Source: an uncultured Planctomycetia bacterium (GTDB taxonomy: Bacteria > Omnitrophota > Gorgyraeia > Tantalellales > Tantalellaceae). Taken from it: 45,089 bases of DNA. The translations under genes and the position numbers were made by a program. The notes under the pieces are model-generated. The model did not search any database, was not told where the DNA came from, and saw only the letters and a list, made by a program, of their open reading frames with translations. This document shows positions 29,133 through 44,886 of this stretch, one piece after another (position 1 is the first letter of the stretch; each line of letters begins with the position of its first letter). The stretch lies in contig CAZGOZ010000004.1 in the NCBI GenBank assembly GCA_964528025.1, forward strand, positions 1 through 45,089, written 5' to 3'.

Positions 29133-29143
29133 ACACCTAATCT

Positions 29144-29271
29144 GAATTTCAAATAACAAAGCACAAAATTCAAAATAAATCCAAAACTTCAAATCCAAAT
29201 AACAAAATTTTTGTTCCTTTGAAATTTGTCATTTGGGATTATTTTGTGCTTTGAATTTTGTCCTTTGGATT
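29144..29271. repeat. Long AT-rich imperfect palindrome (subfamily caaaattcaaagcacaaaat)
   Basis: The left arm is ~90% identical to 14371-14430. The right arm (29239-29271) overlaps the last codons and stop of pilQ. Confidence 0.85.
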
Positions 29272-31065
29272 TCCCCCTCCTTCACCGCTTTTCTCCTCTT
29301 TCTTCCCTTCGCCTGCGGGCTCTTTCTCTTTTCTGAAATCCATTATCGGTTTATAGCCCTCTTTCTTATCCTTGAAAGGATTCTTGTCATCCCACGGGAC
29401 TTTCTGCGCTTCAAAATTCTCCCACCTCCGGATGATCTCATCGCTGTCATTCTGCGATTTTCCTATATATTTATCATACTCCGCCATCATCTGGCCGGCC
29501 TTGACGGAATCCATCGCGTCTTTCACGAGATGCACCGTAATGAAAAACACTATTTCCGTTCTTGTTGCGGCCTCAGCCTCATACCTGAACAAATGTCCCA
29601 TAAACGGTACATGTTGGAATATATCCCCCAGAACCGGAACTTTATTATCTTTTCGCTCTACTTTTCGTTTTATCAGCCCTCCTATAAAGATCGTCTCACC
29701 GTCTCTCGCCCGTATAGTCGTGCTGGCCTCTCTTGAGTTAAAGGTAAGCGCAACCGTGGATAACGTCCCGCCTGCAACCGCCTGTGTAGAAAATCCAGCA
29801 TTCGTGGACACTTCCGGAAAAAGGTTAACGGATATATCGCCGTTCTCATTTACATGCGGGATCACTGTCAGTTTCACTCCGGCTTCCCTAGCCTCCGCTT
29901 CCTCCTCAAACTCAACAGTGACTATACCGGCCGTCTGTGTCGTCTCCTGAGTCTTCTGCAGCATCACTTTCTCCACCACCTTTATCATGGCTTTCTGATT
30001 ATTAAGCGTAGTGATCCGCGGACTTGAAAGCGTCTCCGTATTCAACCTCTCGTCTATAAAACTCATTGTCGCCGTGAAGGTGCTGAAGTCAAGCGAACCG
30101 TATGTAAACGGAGCGGCATAGTTCAGTGTAGTAGTTGAGGTTATCGTTGGAGCAGGGGTAAGATACGGGAAGTCAGAACTCTGTTCAATGGCCGTTTCCG
30201 CGATATTGGACATGTACGGAAAGAACTTTCTCTGGCCGCCGGGAAGAAACCCAAAAACTCCGCTGCGTTCAAATGGAAAAGTCGTGGGCCGTTTGGCCAT
30301 TGACGCGGAAATAATCGCGTTCCAGTCCACACCGAACCGTTCGTCATCATCCAGCTCAATCTCTATAATTTTGGTATCCAGCAAAATCTGCGGTGTTTTC
30401 TTGTCTATTCTCGCGACCATATTTTTCACTTCAATAATTCGGGCGGGAATGGCTGTTACGACTATCGCATTCGCGCTTTGCACAAAAGTGGCCTTTTCTC
30501 CTTTTCCGATGTCAATAATTGAGTTAACGGCCGCCATTAGCTGGATGATGCTTTCTTCCTTCTCCGCCACAGTTATCCCTTCCCCGGATGAAGTACCTTT
30601 TGTCAATTCCACTTCGCGCATGATATGGTTTATCGGAATAACTTCCGTTACCGGCTCTTCACCCTGGAGCTGGGTCTTGGGCATGACCCGAATAATATCC
30701 TGCTTATCATCCCGAAGATATACATATCCGCTATTTCTGGTAACAATATCCAGCGCGGTCTCCCATGGTTTGTTCCTGAGCCGCATGGTGACCATTCCTT
30801 CCACTCCGGGAGAAGGGACGATATCCACCCCGCTGACCTCTGACAGATAATGCAAAACCGTCATGATGTCCACATCCTTGAAATTCACCGTTACGTTACC
30901 GGAAGCCGGAAGAGGTTGTTCGGATTCCTTTTCCACTTCCACTACGGGCGTTCCGGCCGGCGTCGCCATCTGTCCATACAATGGCACCGGGTTCATTCCC
31001 GCAAAAACTATCACGATAAATACAACAAACCCTTTCATTACACTTCCATATTTTCTTATTTTCAT
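29239..31065 (-). CDS. pilQ: Type IV pilus secretin PilQ with a ~94-aa K/E-rich C-terminal extension
   Basis: N0-like domain (VNFKDVDIMTVLHYLSEVSGVDIV) and a secretin core ending VPVLGDIFQHVPFMGHLFRY...EIVFFITVHLV. AAGGAG RBS before ATG 31065. Confidence 0.85.
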   Translation of the reverse strand: MKIRKYGSVMKGFVVFIVIVFAGMNPVPLYGQMATPAGTPVVEVEKESEQPLPASGNVTVNFKDVDIMTVLHYLSEVSGVDIVPSPGVEGMVTMRLRNKPWETALDIVTRNSGYVYLRDDKQDIIRVMPKTQLQGEEPVTEVIPINHIMREVELTKGTSSGEGITVAEKEESIIQLMAAVNSIIDIGKGEKATFVQSANAIVVTAIPARIIEVKNMVARIDKKTPQILLDTKIIEIELDDDERFGVDWNAIISASMAKRPTTFPFERSGVFGFLPGGQRKFFPYMSNIAETAIEQSSDFPYLTPAPTITSTTTLNYAAPFTYGSLDFSTFTATMSFIDERLNTETLSSPRITTLNNQKAMIKVVEKVMLQKTQETTQTAGIVTVEFEEEAEAREAGVKLTVIPHVNENGDISVNLFPEVSTNAGFSTQAVAGGTLSTVALTFNSREASTTIRARDGETIFIGGLIKRKVERKDNKVPVLGDIFQHVPFMGHLFRYEAEAATRTEIVFFITVHLVKDAMDSVKAGQMMAEYDKYIGKSQNDSDEIIRRWENFEAQKVPWDDKNPFKDKKEGYKPIMDFRKEKEPAGEGKKEEKSGEGGGNPKDKIQSTK

Positions 31066-31095
31066 CGGTAAACTCCTTTGTAACACGTGTTGCGC

Positions 31096-31257
31096 TATTT
31101 AAATAACCAATAACCAAGATATGGATAATGTCAAATGACAAAATTCAAAGCACAAAATAAGCACAAATACCAAAATCCAAAACACAAATAAAAGCTTTGT
31201 TATTTGAATTTGAGATTTTGGATTTATTTTGGATTTTGTGCTTTGTCATTTGGATTT
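31096..31257. repeat. Long AT-rich imperfect palindrome, composite, between pilP and pilQ
   Basis: ctatttaaataaccaataaccaagatatggataatgtcaaatgacaaaattcaaagcacaaaataagcacaaata..., with a complementary right arm ending gtgctttgtcatttggattt. Confidence 0.85.
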
Positions 31258-31283
31258 AACGCCTGTCCTCAGTGTTGCAGTTC

Positions 31284-31673
31284 TCATTCGTAAAGCCTTA
31301 CTTCATGTTCCTCTTCGCCTATCTTGATCCGCACGCTGTCGCGCCCTACGGATAAAACGGACACTCTTCCTGCGGTGTCTCCCTCTTTTAATATTTCGCC
31401 GTTCATTATAACGCTCCGGACGCCTTTCGTGCCGCCCACGATGCCCTGAAGGATGATATCATCTATCGTGCGCACTTCCTGTATGTCACCTTTCGTGCCC
31501 GTCTCGGCAACTCCAACAAGCGGGACAAAAGGATCCCGACGGCTGCGTGAATCATATTTCACTTCGTCACTTCCATCCGCGCTGCCGCTGAACAACAAAG
31601 CAGCAAACGCAAGCGTCAGCGCCAATGCGCGGGGAGTCATGACTTTATTCTGTTTTTGTCTCGGTTGATACAT
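31284..31673 (-). CDS. pilP: PilP-like pilus assembly protein
   Basis: Signal/lipoprotein-like N-terminus, RRDPFVPL motif and a small beta-domain, in pilMNOPQ order. Start is ATG 31673 or 31640. Confidence 0.6.
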   Translation of the reverse strand: MYQPRQKQNKVMTPRALALTLAFAALLFSGSADGSDEVKYDSRSRRDPFVPLVGVAETGTKGDIQEVRTIDDIILQGIVGGTKGVRSVIMNGEILKEGDTAGRVSVLSVGRDSVRIKIGEEEHEVRLYE

Positions 31674-32295
31674 AAGTCTTTAAGGCCATTTCTATATTGT
31701 GAATCCTCGGCGTCTTTTTGTTCTGCTTTATCCGAAGTTCTTCTATCGTGACGAATCTTTTGCCACCTTCAAGTTCGCTCACAAATCGCCCCAATTGATG
31801 ATATCCGCTCCTCGCCGTGATAAGAACCGGCAGTTCATAATAATAGTCCGTCTTCGTTTCCCCGTTCTTTTCATCCTCCTGATCAGAAGGGGTTATACCC
31901 GATATTTTAACGGCGGACTCTTTGGCAATTATCGAAAAATCCTCAAGAAACTTTGGTATTTCCTTCTGCTCCGGAAGTCCCTTGGCGTATCCTCCGAGTT
32001 CCTCTCGTAATATTCCCAGACGGTCTTTCATTTTGTCCAGCCGCCCCAGACGGGTTTCTACCAATTCTATATTGTTTTTAATATCCTTCGCTTCCGCTGA
32101 CAATCTGGAAAACCCGGAACAGGAAGGCATGACCACAACCAGTAAATATAGTAAAACAAAGAAAACCATGGCTCCCAGGATTATGTACATCCGCGATTGC
32201 TCATTATCCCAAAGAGGCTTTACCTTCTCATCCCAGAGATTTTTCACTTTCTCATTTACGATCTTATCAAGTATTACCTTTTTTAAGTCGATCAT
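31645..32295 (-). CDS. pilO: PilO-like pilus assembly protein
   Basis: Single TM helix, a coiled-coil and a C-terminal ELPVLITARSGYHQLGRFVSELE motif. ATGA overlap with pilN. Confidence 0.72.
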   Translation of the reverse strand: MIDLKKVILDKIVNEKVKNLWDEKVKPLWDNEQSRMYIILGAMVFFVLLYLLVVVMPSCSGFSRLSAEAKDIKNNIELVETRLGRLDKMKDRLGILREELGGYAKGLPEQKEIPKFLEDFSIIAKESAVKISGITPSDQEDEKNGETKTDYYYELPVLITARSGYHQLGRFVSELEGGKRFVTIEELRIKQNKKTPRIHNIEMALKTYVSTETKTE

Positions 32296-32993
32296 TTCCC
32301 TTTTTTCTTTTCTTTCTTACTATCTGTTGTTTTTTTCTCCGCTCCCTGCGTTTTTTCCTCATCCGGAGAAGGAACTGTCTTTACCGGTTTAACCTGGCAT
32401 CTAATTATGAACAGCATGGCTTCCTTGCCGGTAACTTCACGGCTCCGCATATTTTCAAGCTCTATATCCTCAAAAGCCTCCGAAAAACCCTCCTCACTCT
32501 TCAGGCTCGTAATAAATTTTGCTACACGCGAAGTGGCTTCTTCTCCGCTGCCCAGAGCGTAACCCGTAAGACTCAATGTGACCGGCTCGGCCATCCCTTT
32601 TCTCTTTTTTCCGGCGGTATCACGAAAATCCAGTTCAAACTCGGAAAGCCAGATATTGGAAATCGTGGCCTGGTTCAGTCCGCTGAGTAATCTTGTCCAA
32701 TTCAACTGAGGCTTAGCGATCTTGCGCACGGCAACCACTTTTTTTTCAAGAGCGGCGATTTCACGGGCTATTCTTTCCGTTTCTTCCCGCTGCGGTTGCA
32801 TCTTTTCCCACTGAACTTCCACTCTCCTCAAAGTCCTTTTTTTACACGCCAGCGTAACCAGCAGCGTAATCTGTACAACAATGATTACCGCCGCTACTGC
32901 GATCACCAACATCAATATCGGCAACTTCGGCATCTTGACTGATTGCCGTTTCCTTTTGCGAAATTCTTTGGGGAGCAGATTAAGCTCTATCAT
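32292..32993 (-). CDS. pilN: PilN-like pilus assembly protein with a K/E-rich tail
   Basis: MIELNLLPKEFRKRK (INLLP-type motif), then a TM helix. Confidence 0.75.
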   Translation of the reverse strand: MIELNLLPKEFRKRKRQSVKMPKLPILMLVIAVAAVIIVVQITLLVTLACKKRTLRRVEVQWEKMQPQREETERIAREIAALEKKVVAVRKIAKPQLNWTRLLSGLNQATISNIWLSEFELDFRDTAGKKRKGMAEPVTLSLTGYALGSGEEATSRVAKFITSLKSEEGFSEAFEDIELENMRSREVTGKEAMLFIIRCQVKPVKTVPSPDEEKTQGAEKKTTDSKKEKKKGK

Positions 32994-33019
32994 AAATCAA
33001 TACCTGGTTTCTGAGCGCT

Positions 33020-33964
33020 TCATCTAAGAGCCAGACCAATACCGACAACGAGTTGTAACGCTACTTCTTCTGCGGCTTCTTTAGAAATGCTCTCCGAGAT
33101 TTCTAATCCCGCCATCGGGTCCCATTTTTTTACCGTAACTCCCAGTTTTTCCCCAAGATAACTAATCATGCGTTCTCTATAAGCCACGCCTCCGGAACAA
33201 TAAATACCACTTATCCCCTTGTTATACCTGTTTTCAAAATAGCTCAGAGAAAGCTGCATCTCTCTTATCAGGTTAGAAATAACCGGAACGGAATCCTGGG
33301 CGATTCGTTCCTCATCCGTCGCGATATTCCTGCCCCCAAGCTGCACTTCTCTGGTAAAATAAGGTTGTTTTCCGATTGCAATAAGCATATCGGTTCGCGA
33401 GTGCCCGATATTAAGAAAGATGTTTCCTTCATCCTCCGGCAGGAGATTATTCTCCGTGAAGGCGTTAAACATGGCAAAGGGATCAATATCCACGACACCC
33501 ACCGCCATGTCCAATCCCTCAACTGTTTTCACTAAAGATCCAACGGCTTCCCGTTTGACAGCGGCCAGAAGCACTCTCATCTGACCGGTATCGGGCGCAT
33601 CCCCGAGAATAATAGAATCAAGGATAACATCACTCACATTAAATGGGATGTATTTTTCTGCTTCAAAGGACAAGGCGCCTTCAAGCTGCTCTTTGCTCAT
33701 TTTTGGAAGATTTATAAAACGAACTATCACTTCGGGGCCGGAAAGCGACAGGTTCACCATTTCCGGATGGAGATCAATCTCATCTAATGCCTCTCTGATT
33801 AATGAAGATCGATCGAAGGATTTCACGTCGACGGGAATCTGCTTGATATTATACGCGGCAAGCGTCTTCTTCCCGGACGTCTTATCAATGGCCACGACCT
33901 TTATCGCAAAACTGCCGATATCAAGCCCGACCGTTCTCTCTGTCCTACTGCCAAATTTTATCAT
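33020..33964 (-). CDS. pilM: PilM, actin-like ATPase of the T4P alignment complex
   Basis: GLDIGSFAIKVVAI...FLNIGHSRTDMLI...YCSGGVA. Confidence 0.82.
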   Translation of the reverse strand: MIKFGSRTERTVGLDIGSFAIKVVAIDKTSGKKTLAAYNIKQIPVDVKSFDRSSLIREALDEIDLHPEMVNLSLSGPEVIVRFINLPKMSKEQLEGALSFEAEKYIPFNVSDVILDSIILGDAPDTGQMRVLLAAVKREAVGSLVKTVEGLDMAVGVVDIDPFAMFNAFTENNLLPEDEGNIFLNIGHSRTDMLIAIGKQPYFTREVQLGGRNIATDEERIAQDSVPVISNLIREMQLSLSYFENRYNKGISGIYCSGGVAYRERMISYLGEKLGVTVKKWDPMAGLEISESISKEAAEEVALQLVVGIGLALR

Positions 33965-34024
33965 TATATGGCATGATCTCTTCGCATGTTATATATATAG
34001 AGGAATTAATATTATGTTACAGCA

Positions 34025-34053
34025 AGATTATCATACCAGAATATCATTGTCAA
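34025..34053 (-). promoter_or_regulatory. Weak candidate sigma70-type promoter for pilMNOP(Q)
   Basis: Minus strand reads TTGACA, a 17-nt spacer, then TAATCT. Confidence 0.3.
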
Positions 34054-34128
34054 GTAGGGGCAGGCCTTGTGCCTGCCCTACAACCATAATCATTAATTAT
34101 TTCGGGCACCCACAAGGGGTGCCCCTAC
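34054..34128. repeat. Two GC-rich hairpins (GTAGGGGC...GCCCCTAC family)
   Basis: gtaggggcaggc-cttgt-gcctgccctac and gggcaccc-acaa-ggggtgcccctac. Confidence 0.85.
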
Positions 34129-34184
34129 GATTTTTTAATTACGATACGGATTTCGTGCGGGGCATGTCCTGCGAAAACAAATAT

Positions 34185-34219
34185 AAAAAAAAGGCGGTTC
34201 GCATGAACCGCCTTTTTTT
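34185..34219 (-). terminator. Bidirectional rho-independent terminator downstream of the pilin gene
   Basis: An A-run, ggcggttc-gcat-gaaccgcc, then a T-run. It begins ~30 nt after the pilin stop at 34251. Confidence 0.8.
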
Positions 34220-34250
34220 GCTTTACATACATGTCAAAATGCCTACACGA

Positions 34251-34607
34251 TTATGCCTCTGCTGCAGGCGCGACCAGATAGTGAGTGGTCGGTGAATTCG
34301 GACATATCGGCACACCATCGGTGAGCGTATAGCTCGCCGTACCTGACGGACATAACGGCTCCCGCTTGATGTAATCAGGCGTCAAATTCGCTACCGTAGC
34401 AGTCACGCCGGGGTTATCCAGCGAATATAACACGATAGCACCTTCAACCTGCTTCATGTTCGCAATACAGGCATTTTTCTGAGCATTCTCGCGAGCTTTC
34501 ACGAAGTTCGGAATGGCTATAGCAGCCAATAGACCTATAATTGCAACAACTATCATGATCTCAACAAGAGTAAAGCCGCTCTTACCCATTAATTTACGCA
34601 TCTTCAT
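34251..34607 (-). CDS. Type IV pilin (GspG/ComGC-like short pilin, 118 aa), probable major pilin
   Basis: MKMRKLMGKSG/FTLVEIMIVVAIIGLLAAIAIPNF. AGGAGGGGG RBS before ATG 34607. Has its own candidate promoter and terminator. C-terminal Cys pair (CPSG...PICP). Confidence 0.85.
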   Translation of the reverse strand: MKMRKLMGKSGFTLVEIMIVVAIIGLLAAIAIPNFVKARENAQKNACIANMKQVEGAIVLYSLDNPGVTATVANLTPDYIKREPLCPSGTASYTLTDGVPICPNSPTTHYLVAPAAEA

Positions 34608-34663
34608 TTTTCTCACCCCCCTCCTTTTCTTAACCACAAGGTCCATCATAGACCTCTAACTAA

Positions 34664-34692
34664 AGTATACTCGCGCGTTTTTCGTAATGCAA
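34664..34692 (-). promoter_or_regulatory. Candidate sigma70-type promoter for the distal pilin gene
   Basis: Minus strand reads TTGCAT, a 17-nt spacer, then TATACT, ~55 nt upstream of ATG 34607. Confidence 0.5.
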
Positions 34693-34779
34693 ATTTACAC
34701 CAAACTTTTGTTTAACACCAGTGTTAATAAAACAAAAAGCTGATAACTGTTTTCTTTGTTCCGTTTTTCCTTCGGTTTT

Positions 34780-35121
34780 TTACGAAGAAGAAGTCGGTAA
34801 CTGATGCTCCTCAGGGTCGTTAGAACACACAGGATCGCCGTTTACAATCGTGTAACCGGCCGTCCCCATCGGACATCGGGGCTCTCTCATCAGATAGTCC
34901 GGTACAAGATCAGATACTGCAGCGGGTGTCGTATTAATTTCTAGCTCATACAACTCAAGGGCCGTTTCTAGCTTTCTCAGGTTTGCAATACAGCACTGTT
35001 TCTGGGCTTCTTCCCGGTTGCGAATAAAATTAGGAATAGCTATTGCTGCTAAAAGCCCCAGAATAAAAACCACTATCATAATCTCAACGATAGTGAACCC
35101 TTTATTTCGATTTTTTTTCAT
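34780..35121 (-). CDS. Type IV pilin paralog (113 aa)
   Basis: MKKNRNKG/FTIVEIMIVVFILGLLAAIAIPNF, with a C-terminal CPMG...PVCS pair. Confidence 0.85.
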   Translation of the reverse strand: MKKNRNKGFTIVEIMIVVFILGLLAAIAIPNFIRNREEAQKQCCIANLRKLETALELYELEINTTPAAVSDLVPDYLMREPRCPMGTAGYTIVNGDPVCSNDPEEHQLPTSSS

Positions 35122-35174: not shown

Positions 35175-36395
35175 TTAAAAATCAATCAGTGTCGACATTT
35201 TGAATATCGGCAAGAACATACAAATCACTATGCCTCCTATCACTATACCGAGAAATGCGATAACAAGAGGCTCTATCATGCTGGTTAACCCGTCAACAGC
35301 AATATCAACCTGCTCATCATAAAAATCCGCGATCTTGGTCAGCATTGTCTCAAGTTCACCGCTTTTTTCACCTACGGCGACCATCCGTGTAACTATTGGC
35401 GGAAATATCCCGCTTTTTTCCATGGGCCGGTATATGCTTTCCCCTTCCCGGACGCTATCCGCCACGTTATTGATTGCTTGTTCAACAACCACGTTTCCGG
35501 ACGTTCTGGCTACAATCTCAAGCGCAGAAAGTATCGGTACGCCACTTTTTACAAGCGTGCTCAGGGTGCGGGTAAATTTACTTATCGCGACTTTCTTCAA
35601 TAAAACTCCGAAAACCGGCAGACGCAATTTTATTCCGTCAAGGAAAGTATGCCCCCGATCGGTGCCGAAATACCATTTTCCCGTGACCACCATAGCAGCA
35701 ATAAAAATAGTGACTAAAAGAAAGTATTTTCTCGAGAAATCACTCACATTTATGAGAAACTGCGTGGGCCCCGGCAATTCGGACCCAAACCCTGAAAACA
35801 TATCTTTAAAAACAGGAATTACTTTTACGACCATCACAATCGTAATTCCCATCGCCATCGCAGTCACGACAACAGGGTAAGTCATCGCGGACTTTATTTT
35901 TTTCTGCAGAGTATTCGTTTTCTCCATATAAACGGCCACTCTTTCAAGAACATCATCCAGCATACCGCTCGATTCTCCCGCTTTGACCATATTCACGAAA
36001 TAACCGGAAAAAACGGCAGTATATTTATCCATCGCTTCGGAAAGACTCGCACCGGTATTGACGGAATCGCGGATATCCCTCAGGATGAACTTAAACCCGG
36101 CGTTGTCTGTCTGCTCCGCCAGAGTATCAAGCGATTCAACGATCGTAATGCCTGCCGCCATCATAGTCGCCATCTGCCGACTAAATACGACAAGCTCGTC
36201 CATTTTTACTTTCGTCCGTTTTCGCGATCCAAATGCGGCTAATACTGAGCGTTTTTCCTTGGCCGCCTCAAGTTTGAGGACAACAAGTTCTTTTTCGCGC
36301 AAAACATTCAGCGCATTTTTCTTGTCAGCAGCTTCCACATCCCCTTTCAAGGTCTGCCCTGCCTTATTCTTCGCTAAATACACAAACTTAGCCAT
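35175..36395 (-). CDS. pilC: PilC / GspF-family platform protein
   Basis: 406 aa with two T2SSF repeats and three TM segments. Confidence 0.9.
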   Translation of the reverse strand: MAKFVYLAKNKAGQTLKGDVEAADKKNALNVLREKELVVLKLEAAKEKRSVLAAFGSRKRTKVKMDELVVFSRQMATMMAAGITIVESLDTLAEQTDNAGFKFILRDIRDSVNTGASLSEAMDKYTAVFSGYFVNMVKAGESSGMLDDVLERVAVYMEKTNTLQKKIKSAMTYPVVVTAMAMGITIVMVVKVIPVFKDMFSGFGSELPGPTQFLINVSDFSRKYFLLVTIFIAAMVVTGKWYFGTDRGHTFLDGIKLRLPVFGVLLKKVAISKFTRTLSTLVKSGVPILSALEIVARTSGNVVVEQAINNVADSVREGESIYRPMEKSGIFPPIVTRMVAVGEKSGELETMLTKIADFYDEQVDIAVDGLTSMIEPLVIAFLGIVIGGIVICMFLPIFKMSTLIDF

Positions 36396-36435
36396 TTGCC
36401 TTACTCCGTTCTGTGATCTTTAACCTTAAACAACT

Positions 36436-38139
36436 TTAAGTTGCCCTTAACACCTCTTCAAGCGTGGTCAATCCTTTGATGAATTTTACCATTGCGTTTT
36501 CCCTGAGCGTTCTTACACCCTTTTTCTTCAAATACGCCCTTATCTCTTCTTCCGATTTCTGTTGATTTATCATCTCCCGTATTTCCTCATCCACCAACAG
36601 AGTCTCCAGAGTTCCCATCCGTCCGAGATAACCGGTATCGTTGCATTTTTTGCACCCTTTGCCTTTATAAAACTCTGTAACATCGCTGGCTTCAGGATAT
36701 TCGTCCTTTATTTGTTTTATCAGCTCTTTCGGAATATCCGCTTCAACCTTGCAATGCGGACAGATTTTCCGAAGTAAACGTTGCGCGCACGCAAGGGTAA
36801 GACTTGAAGCAACAAGAAACGGCTCAACGCCCATATTTACCAGACGTGTGATTGCCCCGACGGAATCATTGGTATGAAGAGTGGTAAGAACCATCTGCCC
36901 CGTAAGTGAGGCCTTAATGGCGATATCAGCGGTTTCAAAATCCCGCACCTCCCCTACCATTATGATATCCGGACTTTGCCTCAACAAAGCCCTTAATCCA
37001 CTGGCAAAATCCAAACCTATTTCCGGACGAGCCGCAATCTGAGTTATGCCTGCCACCTGATACTCAACGGGGTCTTCAATCGTAAGTATGTTTCTCTCCG
37101 GCACGTTCATTTCGGTTAATATGGAATAAAGCGTAGTGGATTTCCCGCTGCCGGTCGGTCCCGTTACGAGGATTATTCCGTAGGGCCTTGAAAGAGCTTC
37201 CTTGAAATCGGCCATCGTTGCCGGAAGAAATCCGAGAGTAGACATCCCCACCGAAAGATTGCTCCTGTCAAGAGACCTCATGACAACCTTGTTGCCTGAA
37301 CAGATAGGCAAAACGGATACCCGGAAATCTATTTCTCTTCCATCAAACCGTATCCGGAATCTGCCGTCCTGCGGGGTTCTGGTTTCCGTGATATCCAGAT
37401 TAGACATTATCTTCAGCCGCGCCAGGATAGCATTCTGGTTTTTTTTTGGTAGATCAAAAACCTCGTGCAGACTTCCGTCCACGCGATATCTAATCCTCAG
37501 ACTCTTTTCCTGCGGTTCCACATGAATATCGCTTGCCCGTTTTTTTATGGCCTCGCTTATAATAAGATCCACCATCTTCACGATGGGTGCCGCTTTGCTC
37601 TCTCTGGCCATTTCCAAGAGATCAAGGCCTTCGGTCTTACTAAGAACCTCCATATCGGGATCCTCTTCTTCTCCGACTATGGAGGCAAGTTCCTCATCCC
37701 CTTCTTTGTAAAAAGATTTAAGCGCTTCTTCCAAACCGTTCCGGGAGGCCAGGACAAGTCTTGTTTCGCATCCCGTGACCATTTTAACATCGTCCAATGC
37801 CAGAATATCCGTCGGATCGGAAACGACAAGTGTCAGGTTCTTTCCCACTTTTGACAAAGGCACGATGGAATATCTCCGTATAAGCTTTTCCGGTACAAGC
37901 CGCATGATCCGGGAGTCCAGAGTAATCCTTGTTATGTCTATCGGGGGCAAACCCATCCCTGAGCTCAGCACTGCCAGCAGATCTCCTTCAGAAACCACAT
38001 TTTCTTCGGCAAGCGCGTCTATGATTTCTCTTCCTCTTTTTTTCTTACATTTATCCAAAACACTCTCCAGGCGTTTTTTGTCCACCTTTTCAATCTCCCG
38101 AAGAGCTTTCAGTATTTTTTCCTTAAAATCTTTTTCCAT
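36436..38139 (-). CDS. pilB: PilB/GspE-family assembly ATPase, paralog 1
   Basis: T2SSE_N-like N-terminus, GPTGSGKST, Asp/His boxes, and a tetracysteine (CPHC...CKKC). Confidence 0.9.
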   Translation of the reverse strand: MEKDFKEKILKALREIEKVDKKRLESVLDKCKKKRGREIIDALAEENVVSEGDLLAVLSSGMGLPPIDITRITLDSRIMRLVPEKLIRRYSIVPLSKVGKNLTLVVSDPTDILALDDVKMVTGCETRLVLASRNGLEEALKSFYKEGDEELASIVGEEEDPDMEVLSKTEGLDLLEMARESKAAPIVKMVDLIISEAIKKRASDIHVEPQEKSLRIRYRVDGSLHEVFDLPKKNQNAILARLKIMSNLDITETRTPQDGRFRIRFDGREIDFRVSVLPICSGNKVVMRSLDRSNLSVGMSTLGFLPATMADFKEALSRPYGIILVTGPTGSGKSTTLYSILTEMNVPERNILTIEDPVEYQVAGITQIAARPEIGLDFASGLRALLRQSPDIIMVGEVRDFETADIAIKASLTGQMVLTTLHTNDSVGAITRLVNMGVEPFLVASSLTLACAQRLLRKICPHCKVEADIPKELIKQIKDEYPEASDVTEFYKGKGCKKCNDTGYLGRMGTLETLLVDEEIREMINQQKSEEEIRAYLKKKGVRTLRENAMVKFIKGLTTLEEVLRAT

Positions 38140-38169
38140 TCTATCCTCACCGTGTCCGGGAATAGCCGG

Positions 38170-39891
38170 TCATATTTCTTTGTTTTCAACTGTCGCTCGC
38201 AGCACATCCTCAAGTGAAGCAACACCCGCTAGAACATTCTTTATCCCGTTCTCCCGCAAAGTGGTCATGCCCGCCCGTCTGGCCACCGTCTCAATCTCCG
38301 CGGCCTGCACCCTCTTAAATATGAGCTCCTTAATTTCGGGCGAAAGCTTCATGCATTCTAAGATGCCTATCCTCCCCAGATAACCGGAATACATGCATTT
38401 TTTGCATCCTGCGGAACGATAAATATGCGGAATATGACCTTTCTCATCGTAAAGCCGGTATTTATCCGCAACTGTTTTTGTCGGAGTGTATGCCTCGCGG
38501 CAGGATACGCATAGCCTTCTCAATAATCTCTGTGCAGCGATAAGTTCTACGGAAGCTGCCATAAGAAACGGCTCTGTTCCCATGTTTATCATCCTGATAA
38601 TCGCGCCGGCCGCGGTATTAGTGTGAAGTGTGCTCAAAACAAGGTGTCCTGTCAACGCGGACTTAATGGCAACATCCAGTGTCTCAAAATCCCTGATTTC
38701 TCCCACCATGATAATGTCAGGGTCTTGTCTTAAAATTGAACGAAGACATCCTGCAAACGTCAGCCCGATCTCCTCGTTTATCGCCACCTGATTGATTCCC
38801 TTGAGTTCATATTCCACGGGGTCCTCGACCGTCACGATGTTTTTTTCCGGGTCGTCTATGTGCTTCAGGACGGAATACAGGGTGGTGGTCTTACCACACC
38901 CCGTTGGTCCGCAGACCAGTATCATCCCGTGTGGCAGTTTGCTGACCTCCCGGAGTTTCTTTTTGTCGTCCTCATCAAAACCAAGACTATCAAGGTCTAT
39001 CATCGCCTGTCCTTTGTCAAGGACTCTCAGCGCCACTTTTTCACCCAGGCTCGAAGGGACGATGGACACCCTGAAATCCACTCTCCTGCCCTCCAGTTTT
39101 ATTCTGAACCGGCCGTCTTGAGGCAGACGTTTTTCGGCAATATCAAGGTTGGCCATTACCTTAATCCGGGATATCAGCGCCTGATGAAATTTGCCCGGCG
39201 GAGAATACCTTTCATGCAACATGCCGTCTATCCTGTATCTGACTCTGGAATTTTCCTCCATGGGCTCTATAAGAATATCGCTGGCACGCTCCTGCACGGC
39301 TTTTCTCACTATCATGTTCGTGAGCTTTACGACAGGGGCTTCTTCGGTTATCCGCAAAAGTTCAACCGAGGACATCTCTTCGCCTTCTCCCGTGACCATT
39401 TCCATCTGGGCATTTTCGATATCCTGCACGATCGTGCTAATCTCATCATCGGCGGATGCCTCATAATACTTGCTTATAGCTTTTTTCATGTCGGCCGCGC
39501 TGGCTATGACGGGACTGACACTCATATTATCCAGAACATTAAGATCATTAAGCGCAAATATGTTCAACGGATCGACCATGGCAACCGTAAGTTGCTGCTC
39601 TATTCTGGAAACCGCCAACATTTGATATGTAACCGCTATTTCCTTAGGAATAAGACCCAGCACGTCTTCGGCTATGTTAAAACGAGAAAGGTTGATTGGT
39701 GGGAACCCGAGAATCTCACTCATCGCTGTCAAGAGATTATCTTTGGAAATAACGTTCATTTTAACCAGAATATCGCTAAGACTGCCGCCTTTTTCAGCGC
39801 ATACTTTCCTGGCCTTCCTGAAATCATTTTCCGAAACAAGTTTCTCCTTGACCAACAGGTCACATAGCTTTTTTGTCAATGACAGCGCCAT
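38170..39891 (-). CDS. pilB: PilB/GspE-family assembly ATPase, paralog 2
   Basis: T2SSE_N-like N-terminus, GPTGCGKTT, and a tetracysteine (CVSC...CKKC). Confidence 0.9.
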   Translation of the reverse strand: MALSLTKKLCDLLVKEKLVSENDFRKARKVCAEKGGSLSDILVKMNVISKDNLLTAMSEILGFPPINLSRFNIAEDVLGLIPKEIAVTYQMLAVSRIEQQLTVAMVDPLNIFALNDLNVLDNMSVSPVIASAADMKKAISKYYEASADDEISTIVQDIENAQMEMVTGEGEEMSSVELLRITEEAPVVKLTNMIVRKAVQERASDILIEPMEENSRVRYRIDGMLHERYSPPGKFHQALISRIKVMANLDIAEKRLPQDGRFRIKLEGRRVDFRVSIVPSSLGEKVALRVLDKGQAMIDLDSLGFDEDDKKKLREVSKLPHGMILVCGPTGCGKTTTLYSVLKHIDDPEKNIVTVEDPVEYELKGINQVAINEEIGLTFAGCLRSILRQDPDIIMVGEIRDFETLDVAIKSALTGHLVLSTLHTNTAAGAIIRMINMGTEPFLMAASVELIAAQRLLRRLCVSCREAYTPTKTVADKYRLYDEKGHIPHIYRSAGCKKCMYSGYLGRIGILECMKLSPEIKELIFKRVQAAEIETVARRAGMTTLRENGIKNVLAGVASLEDVLRATVENKEI

Positions 39892-39905
39892 ATAATAATG
39901 TCCTG

Positions 39906-40373
39906 TTATTTGCCATTTTTTTCATAAAGTTTATCCAGGGCCTCGTGTATAGACGTGCCAGTGCTGATAAATACCTGAACCTTCTTCTTTACCATCATCG
40001 CTATATCTTCTATCGCCTTTTCATTCAAGGGATTTGACATCGCTACGGTCAGGATATTCCCGATAACCCCGAGAGAAACAACGCTGTACTGTCTGGCAAC
40101 ATTTTCCGGGATTATCGCCCCGTCTTCCTTTCTCAACTCGTAATTTTCCAGCGGAAGATACGGAAACCCACATTGGACAGTCAATGCCTGGACAATATCT
40201 TTTTCCTTTACATACCCGAGTTTAACCAGAATCTCGCCTAAAAGACCCCCTTCGCGTCTCTGAAAATCGAGGCCTCTCTGCAGCTGAATCTCGGAAATCA
40301 AATCGTTTTGAACGAGAATCTCTCCGAGTTTTTTTCCTATATGTTTTTTTGGTATCATTTTACTCTTTTGCAT
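39906..40373 (-). CDS. Stand-alone T2SSE_N / MshEN-type domain protein (155 aa), predicted c-di-GMP receptor
   Basis: KLGEILVQNDLISEIQLQRGLDFQ, RREGG, then LLGEILVKLGYVKEKDIVQALTVQ: two 24-residue motifs with a 5-residue spacer, followed by the GspE-N1-like fold (GFPYLPL...). No ATPase domain. Confidence 0.75.
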   Translation of the reverse strand: MQKSKMIPKKHIGKKLGEILVQNDLISEIQLQRGLDFQRREGGLLGEILVKLGYVKEKDIVQALTVQCGFPYLPLENYELRKEDGAIIPENVARQYSVVSLGVIGNILTVAMSNPLNEKAIEDIAMMVKKKVQVFISTGTSIHEALDKLYEKNGK

Positions 40374-40385
40374 TTAGGCGCAAAA

Positions 40386-41471
40386 TCAGGATTTACCTGC
40401 CGCGCCTTTGTCCTTAATTAACTTGACCAGCTCTTCAGGATCGGATGACCTGAGTAACGCATCGTCATAGGTTATCTTGCCGGCCGCGTAAAGCTCAAAC
40501 AGCGTATGGTTCATTGTTCTCATTCCAAATTTCTGAGACATTTGTAGGATTGAGTATACCTGGTGTTCCTTGGAATCCCTTATCATGCTCCTTACAGCAG
40601 GATTCGCTACGAGAATTTCGGAAGCTAATACTCTTCCCGGTTGCCCCTTACGCGGTATCAACTGCTGCGAAATAATACCAATCAGAACGAACGACAACTG
40701 CACCCTTACCTGTTTTTGCTGATGCGCCGGAAATATGTCCACTATCCGGTTTATCGTCTGTATGCTGTCTGACGTATGCAAAGTCCCCAGAACAAGATGC
40801 CCCGTATCAGCAATTATCATGGCCTGCTGGACGGTCTCAAGATCACGCAGTTCCCCGATGAGGATGACATCCGGATCCTGTCGTAACACATGTTTCAATG
40901 CATTTTCAAAAGAAAACGTATCCTCATGCAGCTGTCTCTGGTCAATAACGGCTTCTTTGTTTGCATGATCAAACTCTATGGGATCCTCAACTGTCACGAT
41001 ATGACATTTCCGGTTCGCGTTAATCTCATCCACCATCGCCGCAAGCGTCGTAGATTTTCCGCTTCCCGTCGCGCCGGTCACAAGAACCAGTCCCTTTTGG
41101 AACTTACAGAAACGTTTAATAACATCCTCGGGCAGACCGCATTCTTCTATGCTCATAATCCGAAGAGGTATCAGCCTTATTGCGCATCCAACATTATCTC
41201 TCTGTATAAAAACATTGGTCCGAAATCTTCCTATTCCTTTCATAAAAAAAGAGAAATCAAGTTCTTTCTCCTTTTCAAATTGTTCGATCTGCGCCGGATT
41301 CATGAGGTCGTAAATGATATTTTTCGCATCTTCATGTGACAGAACTTCTGTCCTCACATTCACGAGCTTTTCATCAATCCTGTAATGCATCGGAGCGTTT
41401 GCGCTGATATGCAAATCGGAAGCGCGTTTTTCAGGCATCGCTTCAAGAATTTTTTTTATATCATCCTTCAT
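40386..41471 (-). CDS. pilT: PilT twitching-motility retraction ATPase
   Basis: 361 aa with GATGSGKST, GELRD and AHLVLGTLHT-type motifs. No N-terminal T2SSE_N domain. Confidence 0.9.
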   Translation of the reverse strand: MKDDIKKILEAMPEKRASDLHISANAPMHYRIDEKLVNVRTEVLSHEDAKNIIYDLMNPAQIEQFEKEKELDFSFFMKGIGRFRTNVFIQRDNVGCAIRLIPLRIMSIEECGLPEDVIKRFCKFQKGLVLVTGATGSGKSTTLAAMVDEINANRKCHIVTVEDPIEFDHANKEAVIDQRQLHEDTFSFENALKHVLRQDPDVILIGELRDLETVQQAMIIADTGHLVLGTLHTSDSIQTINRIVDIFPAHQQKQVRVQLSFVLIGIISQQLIPRKGQPGRVLASEILVANPAVRSMIRDSKEHQVYSILQMSQKFGMRTMNHTLFELYAAGKITYDDALLRSSDPEELVKLIKDKGAAGKS

Positions 41472-41487
41472 GTTTCACCCTCTGTTC

Positions 41488-41567
41488 TTTGCCGTTGGCT
41501 GTTTGCCGTTGGCTGTTTGCCGTTGGCCGTTTGTCGCATGAGCCATGAGCCAACAGCCATGAGCCAA
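41488..41567. repeat. Heptad-phased tandem repeat block in the GGDEF-pilT intergenic region
   Basis: tttgccg ttggctg, three times (the third copy reads ttggccg), then tttgtcg, then catgagc catgagc caacagc catgagc. All are in one 7-nt register. The second half is partly complementary to the first. Confidence 0.85.
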
Positions 41568-41589
41568 TTCTGCTCTATGCACTATGCTG

Positions 41590-42999
41590 CTACTCCCCTA
41601 CCACTTTATTTTTGCCTGCATCTTTGGCTTTCTCCACATACTGCCGGGCTTTGGCAATGATATCTTTTCCCGTTGCTCCGTCAATCGGGTTTTCCCCGAC
41701 TCCTACGCTTACGGTTATTTTATCGCCCTTACCCGGAGTTTTTAATTTTTCCGTTTTGTCGCGAATACTTTCGGCTATTTCGAGGGCCTCCCTTTTATTT
41801 GTCTCAGGAAGCAGTATTCCAAACTCGTCGTGATCGTTCCTCCCGACCTTTCCGACCGACGGAGCAATTTCGCCTAAAAGCGCCCCCACCTGCTTGAGGA
41901 GCTCTTTGCCCTGTGACATACCGTTTTTTTCCGCGTATTTTTTGAAATCATCCACGTTTACCAATATAAGGGAACAAGGCCGCTGATAATACTGGGCCCT
42001 GTTTATCTCGTCTTCCAGACGCCCCTCAAGACAGGAAAACGTATAAAGCCCCGTAAGGCCGTCAACCATCTCCAGGCTTTTCACCCTTTCAGATATCTGA
42101 GAGCTCTGATATGCAAGGACTAATTCTTTGGCGAATGCTCTCAGAACCTCCACGTCATCGTTGTTAAATTCGACTTCGTCCCCAAAATTAGAGGCAACTA
42201 TTACACCGACAATGGTTGTCTTTATTTTCATCGGGAATAAAATAACATTCATCCGTCCCAGCTTTTCCTTCAGCGTTTTTTGCCACGGGTCACTCGTCGG
42301 GCGGGAATCGGACAGAAGATACTCATTAGAAGCAAAAAGTTTCTCCGTGGACGAAAGCACCTCGCCTATGCTGTCGACATCTGAGTCCCTTCCCGCGTTT
42401 TCAGAAACCGATTTCAGGGAATATTTTCCGGCCTTAGTTCTTATGAATACGGCGCAATACCCCCCATACAATTCACCGGCCATCCCCTTTGTGGCAAAAT
42501 CGGCAACATCGTCAAACGACATGCCCGAGCTGATAAGATCCCCCAGACGCATTAAATTAGTGAGAGTGAGAACTTTTCTGTGAATCTTTACGTTAAGAGA
42601 TGCCGTCTCTTTGCTGTATTCCTGTAACTGTCCCAGATAGCCTCTCATCTTGCCGGTCATGGCATTGACAGCGCTGGCTATATCTCCCAGCTCATCCTCC
42701 CGTTTGAACAGAATCTTTGAATCGTATTGCCCTTCCGCAATGATTTTGGTCTCCAGCGCCAGATTTATCACCGGTAACACGATATTCTTCGCCAGCGTAT
42801 ACCCTCCCCAGGAGATCAGTATGGTCAGAAGAACAATAGCCGTTGACTGGAGCAGCCCTCCCTCTGCGTTCGGAAAAACATAATTTGAGACAAAATATGC
42901 CAAGATGAGAAGAGGGATAACAGACATGAGCGCAAATGCTATCAATAACTTGTACTTCAGGCTGCTCCGCCCCGCAGACTTAAACTTTAAAAATCCCAC
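41590..42999 (-). CDS. Membrane HAMP-GAF-GGDEF protein with a degenerate GGDEF site (DHDEF)
   Basis: GTG start at 42999, 6 nt after an AAGGAGG RBS. Two TM segments and a HAMP domain (ELGDIASAVNAMTGKM). The GGDEF fold shows LTGLYTF..VNVDDFKKY..GRNDHDEFGILL. Confidence 0.8.
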   Translation of the reverse strand: MGFLKFKSAGRSSLKYKLLIAFALMSVIPLLILAYFVSNYVFPNAEGGLLQSTAIVLLTILISWGGYTLAKNIVLPVINLALETKIIAEGQYDSKILFKREDELGDIASAVNAMTGKMRGYLGQLQEYSKETASLNVKIHRKVLTLTNLMRLGDLISSGMSFDDVADFATKGMAGELYGGYCAVFIRTKAGKYSLKSVSENAGRDSDVDSIGEVLSSTEKLFASNEYLLSDSRPTSDPWQKTLKEKLGRMNVILFPMKIKTTIVGVIVASNFGDEVEFNNDDVEVLRAFAKELVLAYQSSQISERVKSLEMVDGLTGLYTFSCLEGRLEDEINRAQYYQRPCSLILVNVDDFKKYAEKNGMSQGKELLKQVGALLGEIAPSVGKVGRNDHDEFGILLPETNKREALEIAESIRDKTEKLKTPGKGDKITVSVGVGENPIDGATGKDIIAKARQYVEKAKDAGKNKVVGE

Positions 43000-43080
43000 T
43001 ATAGACCTCCTTGACTGTCTTCTACACACAGTTTTCAATTAACATTTATATTCTATATATAATTGTCGCGCCCTATATTA

Positions 43081-43109
43081 AGAATACCCTATAGGAATAT
43101 GAAAGTCAA
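43081..43109 (-). promoter_or_regulatory. Candidate sigma70-type promoter for the GGDEF gene
   Basis: Minus strand reads TTGACT, a 17-nt spacer, then TATTCT. Confidence 0.35.
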
Positions 43110-43146
43110 AATGGTGCAATGGATGGTTCGAAGGGTGGTACGTCTT

Positions 43147-44886
43147 TTATTTTTGATATGCTTCGAATTCTGCGCGGAGGGATTGCGGATCGGCGCCCGT
43201 CTTTATGTGGTCCCATGGTAGAGCGTCTCCGGGCGTATAGGTGCGACATGCGTGATCATATATATCCAGACCGTTTTCGGCAAATGATTCCTTCCATATG
43301 CCGAAGTTAAAAAATTCTTTCCAACTGTCCATTTTCGCGCCTTTTTTCCATGCCGTATAGATAATACCTCCCATCCTGCGGTCTCCTCTTGCCATACAAC
43401 CTTCCAGAAAGGATTGCTCCAGGTCATGAAATTTTACGCGAACTTTTTTTGAGGAAAAGGACGTTAGTTCCCCTTTCATGCGAACCAGTTTTTCTTTTCT
43501 TTCCATGCCAAACCATTGCATCGGTGTATGCGCTTTCGGGATAAAAGGGTTTATGCTGATATTTATCTCGGCAGTGCCGCCGGAGACCTTTTTCTTAAGT
43601 CCGGAAAGTTCTCTGGCGAGAGCAATGATCTCTCGTGTCTCTTCGGGCGGCTGACCGGGAAGCCCCATCATAAAATACAATTTTATCTTTCGCCAACCAT
43701 GTTTAAATGCGAGAATGGCCGATTGCGAAAGCACTTCAAGATTAATATCTTTACCCAGAGATTTCCTCACGGATGCGATAGCAGATTCCGGAGCGAAAGT
43801 GAGCCCGGACTTGCGAAAAGAAGACAACGCGTCCGGCAAATCATAAAAGGCCTTATCCACCCGTAATGACGGCACCGATATCCCAACACCCTTGCCGCGA
43901 AAATCGTCTCGCAGTTCGTGAATAACATCTGCAAGACACGGATAATTCACGCTGGAAAGAGACAAAAGGGTAAAACCCTCATACCCCGTATGCGCATAGG
44001 TTTTCCGACATATCTCCCTTATGCGTTCCGGGGTTCTAATCCGCACGGGCCGGTTAATCGCGCTTGCTTGACAGAAACGACAGCCGTTCGGACACCCTCT
44101 CATTATCTCCACTATCGCTCTGTCCTGTACTATCTTTACCAGAGGGACTATTTGTTTTACAGGATAGTAAGCATTTTCAAAATCTCTGACCAGCGTTTTT
44201 TCTATACGCTTCGGGACATCATTGTTTATCGGATTCAGACCCAAGAAATTTTTCCCGGAATAATCCGCTTCATAAAAAAGCGGCACATACGTTCCTTCCA
44301 GCCGTGCAAGGCTTTTGAGAATATCTCGCCTTTCACTGTATTGCTGTTTCGCTTTTTTATACTCCTCTATGAATTTTGGGAGAGATTCTTCGGCATCACC
44401 GATCAAAAAAACATCTATGAATTCACTCATGGGTTCAGGATTATAACAGCATGCTCCGCCGGCGATAATTAAGGGCTCTTCCCGGCGGCGATGGCGAGAG
44501 GCAATCGTTATACCGCCGAGAGAAAGCATATTAAGCACGTTCGTGTAAGTCAGCTCATACGAAAGTGAAAACCCCAAAATATCAAACTTATTTATGTCGG
44601 TCTTTGATTCCAAACTGAAGAGACAACGTCCGGCGGAAATCAACTCTTTTTCCATATCATCTAACGGGGCGAATACCCGTTCACAGGCAACGTCATCACG
44701 CTCGTTAAGAAGATGATAAAGTATGCGCAGCCCCAGATAGCTCATGCCTATCTCATAAGTGTCGGGATACGCAAGCGCGACCGAGACCATCCCCGGCCGC
44801 ATCTTTTTACAGACGCTATTTGTCTCGCCGCCGATATATCTCCCCGGCTTCTGCACTTTATCAAGTATCTCTCGTAATTCTTTCAT
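43147..44886 (-). CDS. B12-binding-domain radical SAM protein (TIGR03960-like)
   Basis: 579 aa. N-terminal B12-like domain, then the MRGCPNGCRFCQA CxxxCxxC cluster motif. Confidence 0.8.
   Translation of the reverse strand: MKELREILDKVQKPGRYIGGETNSVCKKMRPGMVSVALAYPDTYEIGMSYLGLRILYHLLNERDDVACERVFAPLDDMEKELISAGRCLFSLESKTDINKFDILGFSLSYELTYTNVLNMLSLGGITIASRHRRREEPLIIAGGACCYNPEPMSEFIDVFLIGDAEESLPKFIEEYKKAKQQYSERRDILKSLARLEGTYVPLFYEADYSGKNFLGLNPINNDVPKRIEKTLVRDFENAYYPVKQIVPLVKIVQDRAIVEIMRGCPNGCRFCQASAINRPVRIRTPERIREICRKTYAHTGYEGFTLLSLSSVNYPCLADVIHELRDDFRGKGVGISVPSLRVDKAFYDLPDALSSFRKSGLTFAPESAIASVRKSLGKDINLEVLSQSAILAFKHGWRKIKLYFMMGLPGQPPEETREIIALARELSGLKKKVSGGTAEINISINPFIPKAHTPMQWFGMERKEKLVRMKGELTSFSSKKVRVKFHDLEQSFLEGCMARGDRRMGGIIYTAWKKGAKMDSWKEFFNFGIWKESFAENGLDIYDHACRTYTPGDALPWDHIKTGADPQSLRAEFEAYQK

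Follow-up and report, generated by a model that had tools for sequence, protein, structure and literature searches.

A stand-alone MshEN-domain protein encoded in the type IVa pilus motor operon of Omnitrophota, a candidate detached c-di-GMP-binding subunit of the PilB motors

Main finding

We describe a small protein from an Omnitrophota contig that consists of a complete single MshEN/GSPII domain and is encoded between the genes of the retraction ATPase PilT and the assembly ATPase PilB2. Based on sequence analysis, structure prediction and comparison of related loci, we propose, with somewhat more confidence than doubt, that it is a detached regulatory subunit of the PilB motors, with predicted c-di-GMP binding and predicted docking. 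MshEN is one of few widespread c-di-GMP receptor domains, and nearly all work on it has concerned versions fused to the N-terminus of glycosyltransferases or of secretion and pilus ATPases. In the Omnitrophota, an uncultured phylum, a free-standing MshEN is fixed in the pilus motor operon, next to two assembly ATPases that both lack the ligand contacts. The following features of the protein, located in the window (the entire analysed stretch of 45,089 nucleotides), are used below.

39906..40373, minus strand: ORF of the stand-alone MshEN/GSPII protein (longest ORF, 155 aa)
40173..40331, minus strand: four-helix MshEN_N subdomain, residues 15-67, with the tandem 24-5-24 motif (NF053729, AF2)
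within 40173..40331, minus strand: predicted motif I contacts K15/L16/G17...L31/L35/Q38
within 40173..40331, minus strand: predicted motif II contacts L44/L45/G46...I60/L64/Q67
39921..40172, minus strand: alpha/beta MshEN_C (T2SSE_N1) subdomain, residues 68-151 (PF05157)

Domain identity and fold

Direct translation of the ORF returned the protein given in a preliminary description of this DNA, including the segments quoted there for residues 15-38 (KLGEILVQNDLISEIQLQRGLDFQ), 39-43 (RREGG) and 44-67 (LLGEILVKLGYVKEKDIVQALTVQ). The length of 155 aa reported at that time is that of the longest ORF, and its numbering is retained here; the true start is probably Met6 at 40358, yielding 150 aa, because public gene calls (P0001) and orthologs begin at this position. 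A partial Shine-Dalgarno sequence, AAGAG, precedes the Met6 codon, and none is found before Met1. Members of the family are at present named 'hypothetical protein' or, wrongly, 'PilB'.

The profile search suggested in the preliminary description was carried out. NCBIfam NF053729 (c-di-GMP_motif), a curated 53-residue c-di-GMP motif model with a cutoff of 38 bits, matches residues 15-67 with 63.7 bits (E 9.5e-18; model positions 1-53 of 53), a score that chance does not explain, and Pfam MshEN (PF05157), the sole Pfam domain of the protein, matches residues 69-151 with 57.3 bits. An ATPase domain was found with neither the Pfam nor the NCBIfam profiles (no PF00437 match), in agreement with the earlier reading of the sequence, and TIGR02538 reaches 70 bits, against a cutoff of 675.65, on model positions 1-139 of 564. 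The protein is not a PilB, since the T2SSE core (N2D and CTD, with Walker A/B and tetracysteine) is absent.

In phmmer searches against PDB sequences, the whole protein aligns with the N-domains of Thermus thermophilus PilF and Geobacter PilB (E 2e-24), as well as with those of Myxococcus xanthus PilB and Vibrio cholerae MshE (5HTL). The AlphaFold2 (AF2) model, generated from 53 family members (pLDDT 88.9), displays four helices (16-22, 28-41, 45-51 and 57-68) followed by a beta-alpha unit, and its top Foldseek match is the c-di-GMP-bound MshE structure 5HTL (TM 0.75-0.82, 138 columns, both subdomains), with the PilF GSPII domains next in the list. Hence, both MshEN/GSPII subdomains are found, i.e. 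the four-helix MshEN_N bundle and the alpha/beta T2SSE_N1 (MshEN_C) unit. From the agreement between NF053729, phmmer and AF2/Foldseek it follows that the motif register chosen initially is correct with respect to the 53-residue model and the solved MshE and PilF structures. The gene product is a complete single-domain MshEN/GSPII protein, an assignment we regard as practically certain.

The c-di-GMP motif

The motif was defined by Wang et al. 2016 as RLGxx(L/V/I)(L/V/I)xxG(L/V/I)(L/V/I)xxxxLxxxLxxQ, and position 1 was widened to R/K/L by Neissner et al. 2024 (PMC11731258). The tandem 24-5-24 consensus is matched except at two places, where motif I has Asp at position 10 and motif II has Ile rather than Leu at position 17; Gly-3 and Gln-24 are found in both motifs (G17, Q38, G46 and Q67). 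Lys and Leu in place of Arg in motifs I and II, listed as exceptions in the preliminary description, fall within the extended (R/K/L)LG consensus and are not deviations; the exchange of Gly for Asp at position 10 of motif I, also listed there, lies in a column where Gly occurs in 53% of close homologs.

K15 and L44 are equivalent to K167 and L196 of PilF GSPII-B, and E18 to E170. GSPII-B, with K167 and L196 at position 1, binds c-di-GMP with a KD of 6 nM, replacement of either residue by Arg lowers the affinity, and a hydrophobic first motif residue has been proposed as a marker of very high c-di-GMP affinity (PMC11731258). The place of the guanine-contacting Asp of the C-subdomain (MshE D108, PilF D266) is occupied by N114, as judged from alignment to PilF ...SDP267, and by Asn in 79/79 metagenomic relatives; the Asp is thus missing. 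As this Asp-guanine contact is dispensable in MshE and worth ~4.5-fold in PilF, N114 is not disqualifying. In the predicted apo AF2 model, alpha1 begins at L16 and residues 1-11 are disordered, to be compared with the blocking N-cap and long helix of PilF GSPII-A. By analogy with the latter, a perfect consensus is no guarantee of binding: GSPII-A with restored consensus still did not bind c-di-GMP, which has been ascribed to the N-cap/elongated helix and to inter-subdomain contacts (PMC12002112). We consider c-di-GMP binding by the stand-alone protein likely.

Family and conservation

The gene belongs to an Omnitrophota family. Searches returned 2,256 word-indexed matches at E<=1e-5, the best 120 of which are mostly 141-165 aa in length and without exception (120/120) exhibit the 24-5-24 layout; organism names, where the source provides them, are Candidatus Omnitrophota or that of a named candidate genus. 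Both motifs carry Gly-3 and Gln-24 in all 79 metagenomic relatives (50-76% identical), and an alignment of 52 homologs shows no variation at these residues. Similarly, motif I L2 is found in 79/79 and the position-1 Leu of motif II in 78/79 relatives, and conservation of L16, L31, L35, I60 and L64 is complete or reaches at least 90%. In the more distant members, Gln, a residue outside the published consensus, predominates at position 1 of motif I (48/79).

Differential constraint was assessed as mean pairwise identity over seven syntenic loci.

Stand-alone 53-mer: 75.8%
PilB ATPase cores: 72.9-75.8%
PilB2 four-helix region: 59.8%
PilB1 four-helix region: 44.5%

The constraint on the ligand site has therefore shifted from the motors to the small protein, the ligand contacts of which are under strong purifying selection. 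The N1 subdomain of the stand-alone protein has a mean identity of 70%.

The adjacent PilB motors

Both assembly ATPases of the window have intact ATPase cores (T2SSE 448-458 bits, with Walker A and tetracysteine visible) and an N1D of their own (Pfam MshEN 57-64 bits). The PilB2 N-terminus, KLCDLLVKEKLVSENDFRKARKVC / AEKGG / SLSDILVKMNVISKDNLLTAMSEI as quoted in the preliminary description, retains the 24-5-24 scaffold, with Gly-3 replaced in both motifs (C10 and S39) and Gln-24 lost (C31 and I60). NF053729 assigns 27.8 bits to PilB2 of the window, below the cutoff of 38, and does not match PilB1; across related loci, PilB2 orthologs score 27.8-43.6 bits, with four of nine above the cutoff, and PilB1-type N-termini 20.8 bits at most, if they match at all. 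As the PilB2 scores straddle the cutoff, its degeneracy is not obvious by profile, and the earlier claim of PilB2 degeneracy holds at the level of the contact residues. Gly at motif I-3 and Gln at motif II-24 are each found in 0/69 adjacent PilBs; motif I-3 is instead C, T, Q, S, I, V, Y or K, and motif II-3 is Ser in 54/69. The N-terminal motif of PilB1 is unrecognisable, in line with the description of this paralog as the more degenerate one.

In MshE, G11L abolishes c-di-GMP binding and G40I weakens it 72-fold, and in PilF GSPII-A an alanine at the Gly position, A41, blocks the pocket (PMC12002112). From these data and the loss of the Gly and Gln residues we infer, on good grounds, that canonical c-di-GMP binding has been lost in both PilBs. 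Residual binding may persist in PilB2, because four of the nine orthologs pass the NF053729 cutoff.

Operon structure and gene order

The stand-alone gene is flanked by the following genes.

41590..43038, minus strand: degenerate TM-HAMP-GAF-GGDEF protein, upstream of pilT
40386..41471, minus strand: PilT retraction ATPase, 361 aa (TIGR01420, 455.7 bits); stop 12 nt before the start of the longest MshEN ORF
38170..39891, minus strand: PilB2, assembly ATPase paralog, 573 aa; begins 14 nt past the MshEN stop
36436..38139, minus strand: PilB1, second assembly ATPase paralog, 567 aa, 43% identical to PilB2
35175..36395, minus strand: PilC platform protein (T2SSF), last gene of the conserved motor module
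29239..35121, minus strand: rest of the type IVa pilus (T4aP) locus, with the six entries below
34780-35121 and 34251-34649, minus strand: two pilins
33020-33964, minus strand: PilM
32292-32993, minus strand: PilN
31645-32295, minus strand: PilO
within the T4aP locus, minus strand: 129-aa ORF
29239-31086, minus strand: PilQ secretin

A scan of genome contigs with the single protein gave 11 loci, and a metagenome scan was added; the synteny sample comprises 90 loci, 10 from genomes and 80 from metagenomes, with counts made only where the contig reaches the neighbouring gene. All 10 Omnitrophota genome loci are collinear to the contig ends (radical-SAM, degenerate GGDEF, PilT, MshEN, PilB2, PilB1, PilC, pilin). 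In the metagenome loci, the upstream neighbour is PilT (57) or the degenerate GGDEF gene (15) in all 72 informative cases, and the downstream neighbour in all 65 informative cases is a PilB (57 full-length and 6 truncated where the contig stops) or, in 2 cases, another MshEN gene. The neighbours on both sides are all encoded on the same strand. The survey of the pilT-mshEN-pilB placement that had been called for thus reveals a fixed order, in which the upstream gene is pilT in 57/72 loci.

The MshEN-PilB-PilB-PilC core is kept in relatives that are only 34-42% identical. In such distant loci, the core may follow mreBCD-PBP2-rodA instead, a second stand-alone MshEN may sit between pilB1 and pilC, and a 215-aa form with two four-helix modules occurs; the PilBs beside distant members are also degenerate at Gly-3. 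Two loci, L012 and L099, contain neither the degenerate GGDEF gene nor pilT. The mshEN-pilB spacer spans 11 to ~100 nt in the loci examined. When 34000-45089 was scanned for promoters and terminators, the counts were near those of shuffled sequence, and no terminator fell within the motor genes. The scan lends support to co-transcription and is otherwise uninformative. The transcript shared by mshEN and the type IVa pilus motor genes would read degenerate GGDEF gene, pilT, mshEN, pilB2, pilB1, pilC.

A natural fusion to a PilB2-type ATPase

A metagenomic protein of 765 aa, P0140, the one fused example examined, joins a MshEN of the stand-alone type to a PilB2-type ATPase. Its N-terminal 160 residues share 38% identity with the stand-alone protein (E 1e-34), compared to 25% with the PilB N-domains. 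They are followed by a low-complexity linker and an ATPase with 50% identity to PilB2 across 567 residues, the proximal MshEN of which shows PilB2-type degeneracy. Downstream of the fusion, the contig carries a PilB1-type gene and then pilC, and a separate MshEN gene is absent from it. P0140 thus corresponds to the neighbouring window genes mshEN and pilB2 joined into one. The fusion favours docking on PilB over an unrelated role, and no other evidence at hand points as strongly to an action of the stand-alone protein on or next to PilB2.

Direct fission of pilB2 of the window was considered as an origin of the gene and rejected, as PilB2 has its own complete N1D, only 28% identical to the stand-alone protein. 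The fission or fusion relation is with a two-MshEN PilB such as P0140, and not with PilB2 of the window.

Proposed mechanism

As the neighbouring PilBs appear to lack a sensing site, we propose that the signal for these two motors is probably read by a separate subunit. [quoted passage not shown] The guanines would be stacked upon by K15 and L44 and packed against by the Leu triads, the backbone amides of G17 and G46 would read the Hoogsteen edges, and Q38 and Q67 would hold the ribose-phosphate moieties. PilB2 and PilB1 have retained the N1D scaffold and lost the ligand contacts. In the ligand-loaded form, the protein may then serve as a detachable trans regulatory subunit of the PilB2/PilB1 assembly motor, i.e. 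a non-covalent counterpart of the additional GSPII domains that multi-GSPII PilB/PilF proteins carry at their N-terminus, coupling the c-di-GMP level to pilus extension; the affinity and the sign of this regulation we infer. That the protein acts on this pilus machine is likely, and that it does so by docking directly on PilB2/PilB1 is slightly favoured.

The proposal of a trans-acting adaptor, put forward in the preliminary description, is supported: all computational checks agree with it, namely those of the motif register, the ligand contacts in the stand-alone protein and in the adjacent PilBs, the gene position and P0140. The idea that sensing was 'outsourced' to it goes further, as the word presumes a direction; fission of a two-MshEN PilB could equally have generated the present arrangement.

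Alternative explanations

The complete and conserved N1 subdomain (70% mean identity; Pfam 57 bits) would also suit a protein that binds c-di-GMP and, rather than docking on PilB, occupies the PilM/PilC site, as a decoy or gatekeeper competing with PilB2, PilB1 or PilT and hence a c-di-GMP-dependent inhibitor or motor selector. The N1 domain of GspE binds GspL, PilB N1Ds are thought to touch the stator (PMC11656802), Foldseek matches include 2BH1 and 4PHT, and the gene lies between pilT and pilB in 57/72 loci, all in agreement with such a role. However, P0140 tethers the domain to the very motor it would rival, which fits a cis/trans activator better, and adjacency to pilT is not universal, with the degenerate GGDEF gene upstream in 15/72 loci and neither gene in L012. 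We regard competition for the PilM/PilC site as unlikely, yet worth keeping in mind. The same holds for a further reading in which a dissociable, c-di-GMP-loaded MshEN is shared among the motors and its occupancy picks PilB2, PilB1 or PilT for PilM/PilC. If true, this would constitute a second-messenger switch made from a detached copy of the motor's docking domain, and lineages with two stand-alone MshEN genes flanking the pilBs may then have one selector per motor.

Roles that dispense either with the ligand or with PilB appear improbable, each to a similar degree. PilF GSPII-A is a near-consensus non-binder that may recruit partners, and the stand-alone protein could likewise be a ligand-independent landing pad in which the motif is kept for fold and partner binding only, compatible with N114 at the place of the guanine-contacting Asp and with no active cyclase being seen nearby. 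Nevertheless, the invariant Gly-3 and Gln-24 residues are ligand contacts that the bundle itself does not require, as the PilBs keep it without them, alpha1 is predicted in the AF2 model to begin at L16 with no elongated N-terminal helix, and the K/L signature is that of the tightest known binder. Alternatively, the protein may be a cyclic-dinucleotide receptor with an output other than PilB, such as the degenerate HAMP-GAF-GGDEF protein, PilT, or a buffering or sink function; the degenerate GGDEF gene immediately precedes mshEN in 15/72 loci and is at most one gene away in the majority of the remainder, and cGAMP is also a weak ligand of MshEN. Both proposed partners are however dispensable, as L012 and L099 lack them, whereas PilB-PilB-PilC is always there, and the fusion partner in P0140 is PilB2. 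A non-functional leftover of a third, truncated pilB, or a longer pilB split artificially by assembly or frameshift, would agree with the JGI name 'type IV pilus assembly protein PilB' of some members, but is extremely improbable: there are more than 2,000 homologs, the best 120 mostly 141-165 aa long, the 53-mer is conserved as much as the ATPase cores, the gene is a separate ORF in 90 loci from independent assemblies with a variable spacer to pilB, and in the window it is in a different frame from pilB2, the N1D of which is complete. Conservation and recurrence rule out a pseudogene, truncation or assembly artefact.

Comparison to known systems

The MshEN receptor, its fused architectures, MshEN-only database proteins and trans c-di-GMP input via FimX/PilZ are already known. 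The N-domain of V. cholerae MshE (5HTL) shares the two-subdomain fold, the 24-5-24 motif, Gly-3, the Leu triads and Gln-24 with the protein described here. In contrast, it is fused to a T2SSE ATPase rather than being a separate polypeptide, and has Arg at position 1 of both motifs together with D108, as opposed to K/L and Asn. T. thermophilus PilF GSPII-B (8PDK), part of a (MshEN)3-T2SSE protein, is closer at the ligand site, with the same K/L stacking residues, Glu at position 4 and 6 nM c-di-GMP binding without an arginine, and it is likewise an extra GSPII N-terminal to the ATPase. GSPII-B is however covalently part of PilF, has D266-R268 where N114-L116 are found here, and, unlike the window protein, carries a one-residue deletion in motif II.

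Proteins of the (MshEN)2-4-T2SSE type were reported in Wang 2016. In P0140, itself a multi-MshEN PilB, a linker connects a canonical MshEN to a PilB2-type ATPase whose own proximal MshEN is degenerate; the distal MshEN is part of the ATPase in P0140, but a separate gene product in the window and the 90 related loci. No plain stand-alone MshEN is listed in either the main text or Supplementary Table 4 of Wang et al. 2016. The nearest entry is the partly characterised Pseudomonas aeruginosa PA3740, likewise a small c-di-GMP-binding MshEN protein without ATPase and linked to surface motility (Wang 2016 supplement), the N1 subdomain of which is highly divergent, compared to canonical in the window protein.

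Separate sensors are also known from the PilZ-FimX-PilB system of Xanthomonas and Pseudomonas, in which they dock on the PilB N-terminal domain, likewise in trans (PMC8389850; PMC11656802). The TM score of the AF2 model to the PilB N-domain of the 7LKO complex is 0.67 (Foldseek). There, sensing is achieved by a degenerate EAL domain and a PilZ adaptor, whereas here the sensor would be a paralog of the PilB N-domain; the fold of the stand-alone protein is MshEN, not PilZ or EAL, and the likeness to FimX/PilZ is a functional analogy only. In the literature we found no description of a free-standing canonical MshEN that is fixed, phylum-wide, in a T4aP motor operon beside two PilBs devoid of the ligand contacts.

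If correct, the proposed mechanism would provide a regulatory handle on the type IVa pili of Omnitrophota, nanobacteria for which pilus-based attachment to other cells, or predation on them, has been suggested. Should the protein bind c-di-GMP and dock on PilB, the pair would moreover represent a natural split system for studying signal transmission from N1D to ATPase. [quoted passage not shown]

The degenerate GGDEF neighbour and c-di-GMP supply

The TM-HAMP-GAF-GGDEF protein was considered as a local source of c-di-GMP and rejected, based on its degenerate signature, RNDHDEF (GG to DH), the changed guanine-binding residues and the absence of an RxxD I-site. No active cyclase or other c-di-GMP gene was seen in the 45-kb window. 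Literature searches on c-di-GMP, PilB or pilus regulation in Omnitrophota yielded general statements only. That this organism produces c-di-GMP would rest on the literature for the phylum, in which PilZ genes and GGDEF domains near giant genes are reported and T4aP are near-universal. Orthologs of the degenerate GGDEF protein carry xxDEF in all but one case (L007, FDFGEF), and their gene is the first of the operon in most related loci.

Putative signaling and motor components

41590-43038, minus strand: TM-TM-HAMP-GAF-GGDEF protein, first gene of the pilus motor operon
36436-39891, minus strand: two tandem PilB paralogs, 43% identical to each other
7001-9298 of related locus L099: P0140, in which a stand-alone-type MshEN domain is naturally fused through a low-complexity linker to a PilB2-type ATPase

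In the window and in the majority of related loci, the pilus motor operon is headed by a gene for a TM-TM-HAMP-GAF-GGDEF protein. The GGDEF signature is degenerate, reading RNDHDEF in the window protein, while orthologs display FDFDEF, TEQDEF, FDNDEF and similar variants; the guanine-binding residues are altered, and an RxxD I-site is absent. The protein is probably not a cyclase, and may serve as a scaffold or sensor.

The two PilB paralogs each possess a Walker A motif and a tetracysteine, and both are apparently functional. The tandem is maintained as a pair throughout the phylum, Omnitrophota, which raises the question of heterohexamers or division of labour, as proposed for PilB/TfpB of Acinetobacter. 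In L099, genes of PilB1-type and for the platform protein PilC follow the P0140 fusion gene.

Variation among stand-alone MshEN proteins

40068-40076, minus strand: residues 100-102 of the window MshEN protein (N1 subdomain, first beta-strand region)

At two positions where the family consensus is conserved to at least 90%, the window MshEN protein has a different residue: S100 in place of Pro, and G102 in place of Asp. In a close homolog, P0002 (210 aa), the four-helix module is duplicated internally; the duplication breaks off abruptly at '...GFPYLP|KLGEIL...', and could have arisen by chimeric assembly or by tandem duplication in the recent past.

Other arrangements occur in other lineages of Omnitrophota. 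A second stand-alone MshEN gene is located between pilB1 and pilC in L012 (12034-12486) and again on the P0184 contig, while L043 and L065 harbor two MshEN genes in tandem. L014 (971-1618) encodes a 215-aa protein of (MshEN_N)2-N1 architecture, which could accommodate two molecules of c-di-GMP.

Genomic setting of the pilus locus

43147-44886, minus strand: radical SAM gene (Radical_SAM_N2)
27268-29198, minus strand: DUF2344 gene and RNase G
19394-27256, minus strand: clustered ORFs, some pilin-like and others large and unknown, downstream of RNase G

The entire T4aP locus (29239-43038) is situated between the radical SAM gene and the DUF2344/RNase G genes. Elsewhere in Omnitrophota, lineages exist in which this motor module is instead placed after mreBCD-PBP2-rodA, suggesting that the pilus locus moves as a block within the phylum. 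Beyond RNase G, ORFs of 156, 771 and 390 aa lack a Pfam match, and are accompanied by an N_methyl pilin (148 aa), a protein of 767 aa bearing an N_methyl prepilin motif and a PilX_N protein (378 aa); the cluster may encode minor pilins of giant size or a set of tip adhesins.
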